From assembly GCA_963754655.1 (NCBI GenBank), contig CAVWGN010000001.1, positions 64,001 to 128,000 of the forward strand: 64,000 bases of DNA, read 5' to 3'. Within the stretch, counting starts at the first letter, position 1. Each line of letters starts with the position of its first letter. The notes under the pieces are model-generated. The model was not told the origin of the DNA and did no database searches. It saw nothing but the letters and a program-made list of their open reading frames with translations. The translations under genes were made by a program, and so were the position numbers. Below are positions 23,907-30,151 of this stretch, one piece after another. Source of the stretch: an uncultured Chlamydiae bacterium (lineage in GTDB: Bacteria; Chlamydiota; Chlamydiia; Chlamydiales; Parachlamydiaceae).

Positions 23907-24126
23907 AAGAGGCCGCCTCCCTTGCGCAACTGATAAAGCAAAAAATTAATCCAAATAACTGTTTTAATCAAGAATGATTTATCGTATCCGTTCACGAGAT
24001 AAGGCGTCAAATCAATAGAATCGAGGTCCCCCTCCGAGGAACAATCAGGATTTCTCGTGAACCCACAGCTGCGCTTGCGCTTAGGCTCTGGGCTGGGATG
24101 AGAAAACGAGGGCTAAAAACCGATTT

Positions 24127-25530
24127 TTACACAGCTAAAATCGCTAACGGTTCTGATTCCAATTCATTTGATTCTATAGTAAGTTCAATGACATCTGAAT
24201 TTATTTTGCCCAAACTCAAAACTTCTTTTCGTTTTGCTAAATCCGTTTTGCCAATCCATGTTTCTTCCCATTCCTCCAACATTTCGACTGACACCGTTTC
24301 TAAAGCCTCTTGTACGATATCACAATTATTTTCCCCAACCATTCCTGCAAGACTTAGGATACTTTTAGTTATACTAGATGTCGCTTTGGTTCTCTCTACT
24401 ATTATTTTCTGTCTTCCTATCAAAGACTCTATTCCTTCGCTGCTTCCCACTAACACCTGTCCCTTGGATAGCACTCTACCTTCCTGTTTCAAAAAATAAA
24501 AAATCTCTTTTGCCAAATGTAGTGCTTCTGGTTTCAAACTTCTAAAGTGAAGTCTTGCTTTAAGAAAAAAAGTCGCATAGCTTCGTCTATGAAGACCTTC
24601 AGTTCTTACTAAATGCCTTGCCAAACGAATGATTTCTATCATCTGAGCATATTTTTCAATGACTTCTTCGAAATCGACTATCCAACCAGCTTTATCTTTT
24701 AATCTATTTATATCTAAATGGGGAATCGTCTCTTGCATTTGAAGAAGGTTTAAAATATCTTGTAGCCAATCAATTAAAATATCAGCATTCATGAATCGCG
24801 CTTTTTCTCTTTGTTTGGGAGGGCTCAAAAAAGCCTCTGGACTCTGTTTTGTCTTTTGTTTTGTATCTGTAATCAATTGAATTATGTGTTTCCAAGTATC
24901 ATCTTTTTCCAGTTCCTTTTTTAATAGAATTGCTAGTTTATGGACCACATCATAGGTGTTTATTGTTTTTTCATGGTTTTGGCAATATAGTCTTACACCT
25001 TTATTTACATCACTGCCATGATCTGCCACTATCTGCAGAAATGGGCCAATTTTTTCCGATATTTCTTCTAAAACATGCGCAACTTTTTCACCAGTTGATG
25101 AATTCATGGGTTGTAGCGCCAGTGGTTGGAAATCTTCATGATGAATATCAAAGCTGCCCCTTTTTTCAAACTTACTTTGTAATGTACTTAATTGAACTCC
25201 AAGAACTATTAAGCACTTTTGGTAACCAGCTTGAACTTTAAAATCAACAAGGATAATCCAATCTGAAGCCTTTTTCTTAGCCTTTATAAGCTTGTAAAGC
25301 CCATATCGTAAAAACCACAATTCGACGCTTTTCCATGAAGGCTGGAAATTGAAATATTTAAATATTGGAATGTTACAACTCTGCATGGAGATGAAAATTC
25401 GCTGAATCGCTCTAAATGCTATTGCAGCTAATGCAAGTGAAATCACAAAAAATATAAATAATATAGGATATTGATGTCGAGCGACCCTTCGATTGTTGCT
25501 AATTTCTTGCTCAATTATTGCACAAGCTTT
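24127..25530 (-). CDS. IS OrfB DDE transposase part (copy 2)
   Basis: Identical translation to copy 1 OrfB; frame open from the slippery site. Confidence 0.8.
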   Translation of the reverse strand, partial: KACAIIEQEISNNRRVARHQYPILFIFFVISLALAAIAFRAIQRIFISMQSCNIPIFKYFNFQPSWKSVELWFLRYGLYKLIKAKKKASDWIILVDFKVQAGYQKCLIVLGVQLSTLQSKFEKRGSFDIHHEDFQPLALQPMNSSTGEKVAHVLEEISEKIGPFLQIVADHGSDVNKGVRLYCQNHEKTINTYDVVHKLAILLKKELEKDDTWKHIIQLITDTKQKTKQSPEAFLSPPKQREKARFMNADILIDWLQDILNLLQMQETIPHLDINRLKDKAGWIVDFEEVIEKYAQMIEIIRLARHLVRTEGLHRRSYATFFLKARLHFRSLKPEALHLAKEIFYFLKQEGRVLSKGQVLVGSSEGIESLIGRQKIIVERTKATSSITKSILSLAGMVGENNCDIVQEALETVSVEMLEEWEETWIGKTDLAKRKEVLSLGKINSDVIELTIESNELESEPLAILAV

Positions 25531-25823
25531 TTTTTTAATTCATCAATTTGCTTGTCTTTGATTTTACTTTTCTCTTCTACCTCTTCTAATCTCGACTGAA
25601 GGCATTTTATCTGTTTGTTTAATGCCAAGATATTATCTTGTTCCTTTTGTAGCCTTTCTCCTAATCGTTTCTTATCAGTCATTAGAGCTTGAATCTTAGT
25701 TCTTTTTTCTGCGTTTCTTTGCTTCCATTCATCACGACTTTCCTGGTAATGCTTCACTTGTTTACGTATATCTGAAGGACGCTCATGCTTTTGAGTGCTT
25801 TTTGAATCCATTTTATGCCTCAT
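25515..25823 (-). CDS. IS OrfA (copy 2)
   Basis: Identical translation to 6073-6381. Confidence 0.8.
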   Translation of the reverse strand: MRHKMDSKSTQKHERPSDIRKQVKHYQESRDEWKQRNAEKRTKIQALMTDKKRLGERLQKEQDNILALNKQIKCLQSRLEEVEEKSKIKDKQIDELKKKLVQ

Positions 25824-26440
25824 CTAATTTTGAGCAATCAATTATAAAAGCCTCTTTTTAAAAAGCCAAGCGAATTTAAAATAGGAGGAAAAGCGTTCTA
25901 ATAATTAGTTGTTAAATATTTTTTTGTTTTCTCATCCCAGCTCTGGGCTACAAAAAAAGAATAGCGCAAAGCGCTAAATTTAAGCCTAACAGCACTTTGC
26001 ATGATCACTAAAGTTCTGCAAATTTGCAATTATCTCACCCTTAAATAACCCACCCAATAGCTTGATTGGTTTAATAGCCTGAAAGGCTTAAAATAAAATA
26101 GCCCAGGGCATCGCCCTGGGTTAGGGTGTTCATTTTGTGCAAAAAATGAGCTTTATTTTTCACAATAATTGGCATAGTTGAATTGAAGGTCGCATGTTTA
26201 TGCCGTCCTTTCAGGACTCGATGTCTTTTTGATAGAACCCAAGCCTCCGCTTCGCTGCGACCTGGGGCGTGTCTGAAAAACATTACCAAAAAGTGATATA
26301 AATGATAATACACGCAATTATAACCACTCCTCTATATATTTTTTCTAACTCATAACGGGTGTTTTACTAAAATATTTGACACTTGCAGCCCTTCAGGCTG
26401 CATGACACAACACACTCATAACCAGGGCGTTGCTCTGGTC

Positions 26441-28700: not shown

Positions 28701-28805
28701 ACATGACGGCCCTTCAGGCCTTAACAAGAGATGTTTAAGTCCCTCTTTTATAGCCCCTAAATCATCTTTTTGTTAGGCCTGAAGGGCCGTCATGTTACAG
28801 CCCAG

Positions 28806-29645
28806 GGCGTGTTTGAAAAACATTACCAATGTGTGATATAAATTATAATAAACGCAATTATAACCACTCCTCTAAATATTTTTCCTAACTTATCGTAACG
28901 AGTAGCAATTCGTCTAAAAGTTTTTAGTTTTTGGAAAAAATTCTCCACAACCTTTCTTTTTTTATACAAACGCTTGCTATAGGGAATTTCATCAGTTCTC
29001 TTTGGGTGACTTGGAATGACAGCTCGTTCCTTTCTTTTCATTAAATAGTATCTAATTTCATCTGTATCATAAGCTAGATCTGCTATAACATTTCTTGCTC
29101 GTTTCCCATTTAATAGAGATTTAGCAAATAAATTATCATTTCTATTTCCAGGAGCAATTTTTACTTTTAATGGTTGCCCTTCAGCATTAACTACAACATG
29201 AATTCTTGTTGACCAACCACCTTGTGTCTTTCCAATTCCATTAAATGTTTTTCCTCCAAAACCTCCCATTGCATTTTGATGTACTTTAACACTTGTAGAA
29301 TCAATAATATGTGATTCGTGGGATGCATTTTTTTTTCAAAACACTCCAAATTTTTGACCAAGTTCCATTTAAGGTCCAGTTATGCATTCTTGAATAGATC
29401 GTTTGCCAGTGGCCAAATTCAGGGGGCATATCTCTCCAAGGAGCTCCCGTTCTTATAGACCATAAAATCCCTTCTATTACCAACCGATCATTTTTTCTAG
29501 GTCTTCCCTGTTTACCTGTTTGCGAAGGTAATAATGGACTTAGCTTCTCCCAGTCCTTATCTTTTAAAAACATTCTAGTCATAAACACCTCCTATGGGTC
29601 CCTACAACTATTATTATATCATAAATAATCTTTTTAAAACACGCC
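28806..29645 (-). mobile_element. IS5-family element (two-ORF, frameshifted transposase)
   Basis: IRs GGCGTGTTT(G/T)AAAAA; CCAG duplicated at 28802-28805 and 29646-29649 (alternatively a 2-bp CA duplication). Confidence 0.92.
28823..29588 (-). CDS. IS5 transposase, OrfA 29301-29588 plus OrfB to 28823, joined by a frameshift at the A9 run (~29328-29336)
   Basis: GRPRKNDRLVIEGILW..RTGAPWRDMP..FG.WQTIY, then IIDSTSVKVHQ, IADLAYD, YKKRKVVENFFQKLKTFRRIATRYDK. Confidence 0.9.
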
Positions 29646-30151
29646 CCAGGTCGCAGCGAAGCGGAGGCCTGGGTTCTATCAAAAAGACATCGAGTCCTGA
29701 AAGGACGGCATAAACATGCGACCTTCAATTCAACTATGCCAATTATTGTGAAAAATAAAGCTCATTTTTGCATAAAATGAACACCCTATCCCTCTGGGCT
29801 ATTTATTTGAAGCCTTTCAGGCTCTAAACATTGGATATTTTTGGAAGACACCCTTCTATAACGATTGTAGGGCCATGCCTATTAAATAGTACATGCTCCC
29901 CAATCATTTTAGGGACGGTTAACACAAAATGTCAAATGTTCAGAGCCTTTCAGGCTATTAAACCAATCAAGCTATTGGGTTATTTAAGGATGAAATAATT
30001 TCAAATTGCAAAAATTTAGTGATCATGCAAAGTGCTTTTAGGGATTAAATTTAGCGCTTTGCGCTAGTCTTTTTTTTAGCCCACAGCCCAAGCGCGCAAG
30101 CGCAGCTGTGGGTTTACGAAATCCTGATTGTTCCCCGAAGGAAGCACCTCA

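Follow-up and report, generated by a model that had tools for sequence, protein, structure and literature searches.

In a 64-kb stretch of contig CAVWGN010000001.1 from a chlamydial endosymbiont (henceforth referred to as 'the window', in whose coordinates bare positions are given; C1 denotes contig 1 of the genome assembly, which comprises 2 contigs), a 6.14-kb nest of repeats fills the gap upstream of the nqrA gene. We consider it likely that this gap is a pile-up of several palindromic families, built on a module resembling repetitive extragenic palindromic (REP) elements, and of insertion sequences (ISs) that home to motifs of this module, all accreted upstream of nqrA. The nest would have grown at this site because the repeats carry the preferred target of each IS type: GCCCNGGGC for an element that we call ISX, CCAG/CTGG/CTAG for an IS5-type element and ACATG, in the linker of the module, for an IS481-type element. 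Each landing module would add copies of all three target motifs, so that occupied sites would become progressively better targets and turn into nests.

BLAST of the window against its own genome showed that 24003-30141 is a single unbroken block of multi-copy DNA, one of four such blocks in the window. The nest holds a full and a truncated ISX, an IS481-family IS, an IS5-type IS (of the subgroup that we take to be IS427) and a MITE (miniature inverted-repeat transposable element) derived from an IS5-type IS, and IS DNA makes up ~4.25 kb (69%) of its length. Nesting is six deep, from O1 through O2, FB-big, the IS5-MITE and L2 to FB-inner (layers are named as in Table 1). Among the 1457 repeat clusters of the genome the nest cluster is the 13th largest, and 20.6% of the genome lies in 14-mers seen at least four times. 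With about a fifth of the genome consisting of such repeated DNA, these elements probably shape genome rearrangements. The interpretation given here would explain, in terms of mechanism, how certain intergenic sites in the repeat-rich genomes of endosymbionts become transposon nests.

Palindrome families and their shared two-hairpin module

The palindrome families of the nest are O1, O2/S, the 396-bp FB, L2 and a 144-bp MITE, and their arms are built from a common module that consists of hairpin 1 (CCCAGGGC-loop-GCCCTGGG), a linker of ~12 nt and hairpin 2 (GCC-TTCA-GGC). This module matches the Rfam family Acido-Lenti-1 (RF01687). The core of FB-inner holds a mirrored pair of matches, at 26710-26764(+) and 26819-26873(-), that score 36.4 bits against a gathering score of 37 and are separated by a 42-nt spacer; with arms identical at all 177 positions, the pair is an inverted doublet able to fold into one hairpin. 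Weaker matches lie in the O2 arm (26075-26120(-), 26.1 bits) and in FB-big (28775-28807(-), 28 bits), and above-threshold matches occur elsewhere in the genome and in relatives. Of 1077 candidates in this genome 150 were scored, and 148 of these match; RF01687 is also present in 20 of 41 related genomes. FB itself is lineage-specific: strong matches to it came only from its own genome, and of 20 relatives three gave matches, all short and weak. Because the module matches Acido-Lenti-1 and brackets a Y1/HUH transposase gene in inverted orientation (see below), we take the FB core to be a REPIN-like doublet with co-varying arms.

A repeat search run on 23000-31500 recovered the arms of the layers as inverted repeats: 24031-24080 against 30094-30141 (92-96%), 25952-26088 against 29944-30076 (84-100%), 26118-26285 against 29626-29792, 26369-26428 against 26990-27049, 26437-26467 against 26558-26588 and, in FB-inner, 26587-26770 against 26813-26996 (184 nt, 99%). 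Arm identity is 100% in FB-inner, 97.9% in FB-big, 92% in both L2 and O2 and ~90% in O1. The outer arms are composite, their inner 84 bp deriving from the abundant O2/S families and their outer part from the rare O1 family, and a 120-bp insert in the right O2 arm (29824-29943), which sits between 13-bp direct repeats (AGCCTTTCAGGCT), is the centre of a 215-bp 'S' palindrome family. An earlier reading of this DNA, henceforth the original prediction, had described concentric palindrome layers with named MITEs and ISs inside them, and the repeat search, Pfam and BLAST recovered all of these nearly to the base. Its further claim that the whole gap is one nested palindrome holds in so far as the gap is a single multi-copy block of nested inverted repeats, which starts at 24003 and not at 24023. 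The single pair of outer arms that it proposed does pair, but contains at least two families (O1 and O2) plus the extra 120-bp insert. Ordered removal of every piece by target-site duplications (TSDs) or junctions is likewise feasible for the ISs and the IS5-MITE, which have TSDs, but not for one junction that is probably a deletion (between the ISX fragment and the IS481-type element), nor for most palindromic layers, which are without direct TSDs. Its central idea of one modular foldback family inserting into itself gives way to several families that share a REP-like module tied to Y1 genes, plus MITEs of DDE elements.

The original prediction would have been refuted had its layers never occurred independently elsewhere in the genome, and genome BLAST did not refute it, as O1, O2, FB and the 144-bp MITE were each found alone. 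A simple copy of the low-copy O1 family (C1:740340, 2564644, 2646761 and 3098961-3100477) lies at C1:740340-740690, and an empty O2 with its central hairpin intact at C1:473150-473330. The genome further contains ~40 matches to the O2-type arm and 173 FB termini; the 29789-29943 unit is found in near-full form 33 times and the 144-bp MITE in complete form 72 times, and 42 of the 76 FB pairs are 350-399 bp long. The ISX-free joint 24090|25940 is present in 5 other O1 copies, and the joints 26270|28700, 28810|29640, 26430|26590 and 29830|29940 were found ~250, ~270, ~12 and 10 times, respectively. Adjacencies of L2 with an enclosed FB and of the MITE with FB recur at 6-10 or more loci, and 26262-26747, which includes the 144-bp MITE, is 96.9% identical, without gaps, to C1:2141149-2140664.

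Other nests were also noted. At window 5842-8317, a simpler nest of the form O2[ISX+FB] has a full ISX (5955-7802, TSD GCCCTGGGC in ISX orientation) in the central hairpin of O2, directly adjoined by a 394-bp FB copy. A second O1-bounded deep nest at C1:3098932-3100507 has the form O1[O2[T2-type element, FB with duplicated core, 144-bp MITE]], and here inverted repetition continues beyond the O1 ends (aaaattatagag), which hints at a further outer layer. Further multi-copy blocks of the window lie at 60978-62035 and 50999-51389, the former with ~1000 BLAST matches per position, the maximum in the window.

Insertion sequences and their target motifs

ISX is present in the genome in 10 full copies at 97.7-100% identity, nine of which are bounded by a perfect 9-bp TSD (GCCCTGGGC, GCTCTGGGC twice, GCCCAGGGC twice, GCCCGGGGT, GCCCAGAGC, GCCCCAGGA and ACCCAGGCC). 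All nine target sites fit GCCCNGGGC, the hairpin-1 stem of the shared module, with 0-2 mismatches. This motif occurs 96 times in the genome, where composition alone predicts 6.3 occurrences and eight control palindromes of equal composition are found 0-28 times, and 92 of the 96 sites (96%) lie inside repeat clusters, which occupy 24% of the genome. The ISX fragment of the nest belongs to a 306-nt inverted repeat (99%) between 25643-25948 and 27129-27434 and has its ISX terminus at 27138. The 9-mer beside this terminus (GCCCTGGGC, 27129-27137) is formed by the end of the IS5-MITE together with its TSD, so an earlier insertion made a perfect target for the next. Around 20 short derivatives of ISX ends, at ~85% identity, are scattered in the genome (e.g. 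C1:242830-243089). The sole full copy without matching TSDs, C1:2340157-2342030, has a right flank equal to the target sequence of another copy, the one at 2444903, and lies 40 bp from an IS481-type element, which suggests recombination between IS copies.

The termini of ISX are TGGGATGAGAAAAC and GTTTTCTCATCCCA, and its two minus-strand open reading frames (ORFs) in the nest lie at 25515-25823 and 24127-25446, with a run of nine T (25528-36, plus strand) in the 3' end of the upstream ORF, just before the inter-ORF gap. Neither Pfam nor NCBIfam yielded a family match for the ISX ORFs, including the 439-aa one, and the 50 homologues of the 439-aa protein are all unnamed and mostly found on 1.7-2.7-kb contigs and in Nostoc-group cyanobacteria (Nostoc, Desmonostoc). 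The best Foldseek matches of its AlphaFold model (pLDDT 86) are the transposases of Hermes (hAT; E 1.2e-5), ISCth4 (IS256 family) and the P element, with E values from 1.2e-5 to 6e-4 over ~370-490 aligned columns. ISX shares with these proteins an RNase-H-like fold with a helical insertion and differs from them in its low identity (10-13%), in belonging to no Pfam or NCBIfam family and in its palindromic target; it appears to be an uncatalogued IS family. Elements of the IS256/Mutator type generate TSDs of 8-9 bp, which the 9-bp TSD of ISX resembles.

The IS5-type IS (Pfam DUF4096 and DDE_Tnp_1, in two frames) has 6 full copies, every one with the TSD CCAG. Five of these lie at one module position (acagCCAGgtcgc), and since both sides of the asymmetric spacer are used and the outer contexts number four or more, they represent independent insertions; the targets of the IS5-type elements and their MITEs are CCAG, CTGG or CTAG (CYRG). 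The composite MITE of the nest has ends 87-90% identical to those of the full IS5-type IS, no transposase gene and a 4-bp TSD of parental length; it carries as cargo the L2 arms, the 144-bp MITE and the perfect 396-bp FB-inner, and the flanking 9-mers recorded for it are GCTCTGGTC, GCCCTGGTC and GCCCTGGAT. Complete cargo-carrying composites occur at three loci (866 bp here, 710 bp at C1:512356-513065 and 2523 bp at C1:1042413-1044935), all with perfect 4-bp TSDs of their own, and sub-nests recur, so that the nest would have been partly imported pre-packed. This shows that the inner composite (IS5-MITE, L2, 144-bp MITE and FB) in all likelihood moved in as one unit, and its arrival in one step is predicted to imply an empty site GACCTGGGCTGTAAC inside FB. 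In a fourth element, a short one that also has ends of the IS5 type (432 bp, C1:2409265-2409696), the two flanks, CTAG and CCAG, do not match.

The IS481-type IS (Pfam rve, rve_3, HTH_32 and LZ_Tnp_IS481) has 55-nt imperfect terminal inverted repeats (91%), and all three of its copies lie at the same module site (ctgtaACATGacggccc). The TSD ACATG is present in two of the three; in the nest the left copy is missing, and the ISX fragment abuts the left end of the element without a TSD, from which we infer an IS481-adjacent deletion. Taking all IS copies together, repeated k-mers make up 50% or more of one or both 60-bp flanks in 19 of 19, compared with 17% of 3000 random 60-mers that reach this level. 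The concentration of unrelated transposons in repeats that the original prediction had described is therefore real, but what it took for attraction by palindromes, around which the ISs do cluster, is ordinary target-site specificity for motifs of the module.

Y1 transposase genes, arm symmetry and the spread of the palindromes

The genome contains nine matches to the Y1 transposase domain (PF01797), seven of them full length. These seven genes are mutually diverged, in ~5 distinct types, and most are bordered by high-copy DNA. Beside the intact, IS200-like gene at C1:395846-396184, FB positions 76-182 follow directly after the stop codon (89.7%) and an inverted copy of FB positions 116-174 lies upstream (80%). 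A genome of a second genus, with 103 RF01687 matches among the matches listed, has a Y1 gene (C3:1116531-1116872 of G007) between two inverted RF01687 matches of 41.6 bits each. The Y1 ORFs contain KYLSSQKEHH and KYIQNQKEHH (Y---Q--HH) and the HUH motifs HIH and HVH, and their products pass the NCBIfam IS200 model NF033573 (64-66 bits, cut-off 55). In the available extracts of Quentin et al. (PMC6006769), Y---Q--HH, a C-terminal extension and low copy number are the signature of TnpA-Y1 subclass 1.2, into which the present proteins would fit by signature. The same extracts report that subclass 1.2 genes are generally without the typical IS200 terminal secondary structures, and describe a conserved 5' GT[AG]G foot on REP hairpins. 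The T2-type hairpin (GTAGTCCTTCAGACTAC), which belongs to another repeat family and borders the Y1 genes at ~2.54 Mb, begins with such a GTAG; this foot was not seen at the FB-core hairpin. The ~2.54-Mb locus (C1:2542121-2548284) has three Y1 genes of the same type (88-96% identity across 525-795 nt) in a space of 6 kb. In each case an Acido-Lenti-like hairpin pair comes before the gene and the GTAG-footed hairpin after it, and derivatives of the unit that have lost the gene (e.g. C1:166930-167230) retain its 3' end.

We compared the two arms of FB in those 20 of the 76 paired copies whose length is exactly 396 bp, the remaining 56 being excluded as their lengths differ. Arms differ at a mean of 0.75 of 177 positions within a copy, with no difference in 11 copies, and at 8.9 between copies. 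A variant is shared by the two arms of a copy 85 times and confined to a single arm 15 times, and none of 2000 permutations reached the observed co-variation. The termini of FB are preceded by NCCCNGGGN in ~150 of 173 cases, and the centre base of the two flanks is the same in 24 pairs, complementary in 39 and other in 13 (76 pairs). A 9-bp TSD as the sole model for the 396-bp palindrome was rejected on the flank counts given below. For the 144-bp MITE, the flank GCCCACCGT matches at 9/9 positions in direct and 2/9 in inverted orientation, which cannot be an effect of palindromy; the termini of this MITE and of ISX share only [T/C]GGGA. Palindromes would thus seem to move by two routes, namely a DDE route with 9-bp duplications, as in ISX, and a duplication-free route, by Y1-type single-strand insertion or by symmetrisation of arms. 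In the interpretation that we favour, palindromic modules would be spread by a Y1 enzyme acting on single-stranded hairpins, a mode of insertion expected to generate no TSD and to explain why inverted flanks are so numerous. The 144-bp MITE would owe its spread to a transposase of the ISX type, since some of its copies have, like ISX, a 9-bp TSD. SbcCD destroys long palindromes in E. coli. No match to SbcD was found in the genome by a search that matched 13 of 14 control genomes, and for SbcC there were only two N-terminal matches of 21-22 bits; since no SbcCD hairpin nuclease was found, long perfect palindromes would be tolerated here.

A number of observations weigh against this interpretation. 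With regard to the Y1 genes, only one of the seven full genes here carries an RF01687-scoring module, on one side only at E<=0.1, with no RF01687 at this threshold at the other Y1 loci of this genome (L018-L020), and in another genome with 112 RF01687 matches (G028) the module was present at none of four Y1 loci within the flanks examined. Canonical RAYT membership was rejected, the Y1 proteins scoring 22.6 bits on NF047646, whose cut-off is 80; since this model failed, we describe the system as working like REP/REPIN-RAYT and not as a canonical member. With regard to the palindromes, the arm test covers only 20 of the 76 paired FB copies, and the FB flanks are mixed (2 perfect direct and 21 perfect inverted 9-mers among 76 pairs), so that they agree neither with a model in which every insertion makes a TSD nor with one in which none does. 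The flanks of the 72 copies of the 144-bp MITE are likewise divided (6 perfect direct, 6 perfect inverted and 11 with at least 8/9 direct), two independent insertions do not account for the identical O1/O2 junction on both outer arms, and no movement of the elements was observed. Finally, the sole public sequencing run containing the stretch (62% of sampled words) is a low-depth soil metagenome with short contigs, none of them spanning the nest, and gives no long-read support.

Several of these points would be met if the arms were made or kept symmetrical by arm copying, through hairpin-templated synthesis or arm-to-arm conversion, so that much of the nesting reflects symmetrisation after an insertion near the apex. 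We regard this as a possibility worth keeping in view, though not a probable one. The predominance of variants in both arms, the near identity of arms within a copy, the excess of inverted over direct perfect flanks and the shared O1/O2 junction all point this way, as does a 144-bp MITE that lies exactly at the apex of an O2 hairpin (C1:1071040), and compensatory changes in arms are also described for REPINs in the available part of Bertels and Rainey (PMC3116915). However, ISX, the IS5-type elements and some 144-bp MITEs have clear direct TSDs, the ~10% difference between the outer arms and the unmatched 120-bp insert in the right O2 arm argue that symmetrisation is not ongoing at all layers, and descent of sub-families from symmetrical masters could yield part of the signal.

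A more far-reaching proposal, which we put forward tentatively and hold to be rather unlikely, is that the modules are the substrate of a subclass-1.2 Y1/HUH enzyme that inserts palindromic units at the single-stranded apex of extruded hairpins and uses one strand to regenerate the two arms. The palindromes would then enlarge from within, symmetrise themselves and leave no target duplications, and they would be tolerated in an endosymbiont free of SbcCD; the DDE ISs would secondarily have evolved homing to stem, linker and loop motifs. If so, the orphan Rfam family Acido-Lenti-1 would be a DNA element rather than a small RNA (sRNA).

Growth in place, in which one modular foldback family would have added layer upon layer by self-insertion and served as a safe harbour that attracts transposons, is improbable. 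The nesting is real, the IS layers have TSDs and the outer arms (~90%) are more diverged than those of FB (98-100%), as expected if the outer layers are older; yet divergence does not track depth, as L2 arms of 92% lie inside FB-big arms of 97.9%. In addition, the layers come from different families, which differ in their ends and in what is likely to mobilise them, the inner three to four are found again at other loci as one unit that has TSDs of its own, and one junction is probably a deletion.

The nqrA locus and comparison with known systems

The distance between nqrA and a divergent gene of 721-749 aa is 180-450 bp in the three closest relatives, whose NqrA is 75-79% identical; in two of these relatives one extra ORF lies between the two genes. 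The orthologue of the divergent gene lies here at 35298-37493 (731 aa), and the ~11.4 kb extra between it and nqrA, which consists of the nest and four minus-strand ORFs, is absent in all three. Judged by gene order, the accretion segment upstream of nqrA is lineage-specific. The comparison with relatives for an empty site, which the original prediction had called for, was made by gene order, in which nqrA lacks the nest in all three; the relatives are too distant for a nucleotide-level comparison. Immediately upstream of nqrA (~23941-23981), matches of 27-41 nt at 83-85% occur in two relatives (L015 and L016), and the nest starts just beyond; in the third (L017) a 72% match over 96 nt (~23880-23974) includes the first 27 bases of the nqrA coding sequence. 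A promoter-like TTGACG-18-TACGAT at 23981-24010(-), no more than a match to the consensus, lies ~75 bp upstream of the start of nqrA, and the end of the O1 repeat (24005-24010) may supply its -35 box. The four ORFs of the 11.4-kb segment (30152-34852(-)) encode 185, 399, 532 and 407 aa; among the 185-, 399- and 532-aa products, which were scanned, only the 399-aa one has a hint of a family (alpha/beta hydrolase, with a weak DUF818 'Chlamydia CHLPS' match), and the ORFs 30152-30709 and 32021-33619 gave nothing above chance in Pfam and NCBIfam. The features of the locus are collected in Table 1.

Table 1. Layers and genes of the nest upstream of nqrA, in window coordinates.
Feature	Position	Strand	Remarks
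nqrA	22515-23906	-	Pfam NQRA domains; left neighbour of nest
O1 left arm, outer part	24003-24093		pairs with 30085-30141 at ~90%; last 9 bp, 24085-24093 (GCTCTGGGC), are the ISX target duplication
Full ISX, 1846 bp	24094-25939	-	second TSD copy 25940-25948
O1 left arm, inner part	25949-26037		pairs with 29992-30084 at 89.5%
O2-type left arm	26038-26121		hairpin 2 (26076-26088), linker, hairpin 1 'H' (26101-26121, GCCCAGGGC atc GCCCTGGGT)
FB-big palindrome, TAGGGTG...CACCCTA	26122-29788		arms 97.9%
FB-big left arm	26122-26265		97.9% to 29650-29788; ends in CTGG duplicated by IS5-MITE
Composite IS5-MITE, 866 bp	26266-27131		ends 26266-26353 and 27066-27131; TSD CTGG at 26262-26265 and 27132-27135
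L2 arms, second layer (26354-27065)	26354-26431 and 26999-27065		92% arm identity
144-bp MITE	26441-26584		halves 88% identical
FB-inner, perfect 396-bp palindrome	26594-26989		arms 177/177 identical
9-mer GCCCTGGGC (27129-27137) and 297-bp ISX fragment (27138-27434)	27129-27434	+	right ISX end, inverted relative to full copy
IS481-family IS, 1266 bp	27435-28700	-	transposase ORF 27490-28623(-); right flank ACATG
FB-big core: hairpin GGCCCTTCAGGCC, spacer, inverted hairpin	28701-28805		runs to CCAG target of IS5; 96% identical to FB-inner core
IS5/IS427-type IS, 840 bp	28806-29645	-	ORFs 29301-29588 and 28823-29269 in two frames; TSD CCAG at 28802-28805 and 29646-29649
FB-big right arm	29646-29788		CACCCTA ends at 29788
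Right counterpart of O2 arm	29789-29991		half hairpin H (29789-29799), hairpin 2 (29811-29823), 120-bp insert, second hairpin 2 (29944-29956), O2-specific sequence
O1 right arm	29992-30141		ends at stop codon of ORF 30152-30709(-)

As the region consists entirely of repeats and the only public run offers no contig across it, we considered whether mis-joined repeats could have produced a false nest. This is very unlikely, given the perfect TSDs at four IS/MITE boundaries, arms that are diverged and not collapsed, analogous nests at two other loci (window 5842-8317 and C1:3098932-3100507) and an assembly in 2 contigs; moreover, a 177-base contig equals 25940-26116 without a difference and bridges the ISX TSD into O1/O2. 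A depth-2 metagenome contig joins 24084 to 25940 without ISX, with 27 letters on one side; it possibly derives from a paralogous O1, and no conclusion was drawn from it. It is equally hard to credit that the nest is a functional structured RNA or a regulatory DNA structure for the nqr operon, in spite of the near-threshold Rfam sRNA match, the position ~100 bp upstream of nqrA and a promoter-like site whose first hexamer lies in the first bases of the repeat, as the same modules occur hundreds of times in unrelated contexts, the relatives have nqrA without the nest and 69% of the nest is IS DNA.

The locus offers, within 6 kb, a natural test bed that combines three families of IS, a MITE with cargo and a REPIN-like system whose 177-nt arms co-vary. 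It could be used to study how an unclassified DDE transposase chooses its targets, what TnpA-Y1 subclass 1.2 proteins have as their substrate and how long perfect palindromes come to be tolerated. In the literature searched, we found no publication on such repeats in Parachlamydiaceae, which is no proof that none is in print. It is already known that REP clusters can be hot spots for ISs, and REPINs and MITEs that are nested or derived from ISs have likewise been described. New here are the nesting depth, the long perfect arms, the three ISs each on a different motif of one module, the MITE with target-bearing palindromes as cargo and the chlamydial endosymbiont host.

The likeness in name and shape to eukaryotic Foldback (FB) transposons, which have long terminal inverted repeats of tandem subrepeats, goes no further, such subrepeats not being evident in the arms here. 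Nested MITEs and IS-derived MITEs in bacteria are reportedly covered in a review by Delihas from 2011. Like bacterial MITEs, the elements described here are non-coding, have IS-like inverted ends and TSDs and are inserted into one another; unlike simple internal-deletion MITEs, the IS5-derived MITE carries foreign palindromic cargo of 620-2370 bp. The Acido-Lenti-1 RNA motif (RF01687; Weinberg et al.), which a 2026 preprint still gives as of unknown function, has the same two-hairpin architecture as our module; in contrast to a stand-alone sRNA gene, the module here behaves as a DNA repeat that flanks a transposase gene and as an IS target. ISs of unrelated families insert specifically into REP elements, which are hot spots for them, according to the accessible portion of Tobes and Pareja (2006, PMC1525189). 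Compared with what is described there, the present nest involves three IS types, each with its own short motif of one module as defined by its TSDs, one of the ISs is of an unclassified family, and the target-bearing repeats are themselves the cargo of a MITE. The closest parallel is with the REP, BIME and REPIN systems and their Y1 genes (REPtrons), as far as the available parts of Bertels and Rainey (2011, PMC3116915) and Quentin et al. (2018, PMC6006769) describe them. Both have hundreds of dispersed intergenic hairpin modules, inverted doublets that fold into long hairpins, a Y1/HUH gene of low copy number with these modules on both sides, symmetric changes in both arms and several module types per genome, each beside its own Y1 gene. 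In the available text of PMC3116915, the higher-order arrangements of REPINs are tandem clusters and the word 'nested' is absent. The system described here differs from REPtrons in that its protein is of the IS200-like subclass 1.2 type and not a canonical RAYT, and in that its units, of 396 bp with perfect arms of 177 nt, are far longer and reach a nesting depth of up to six.

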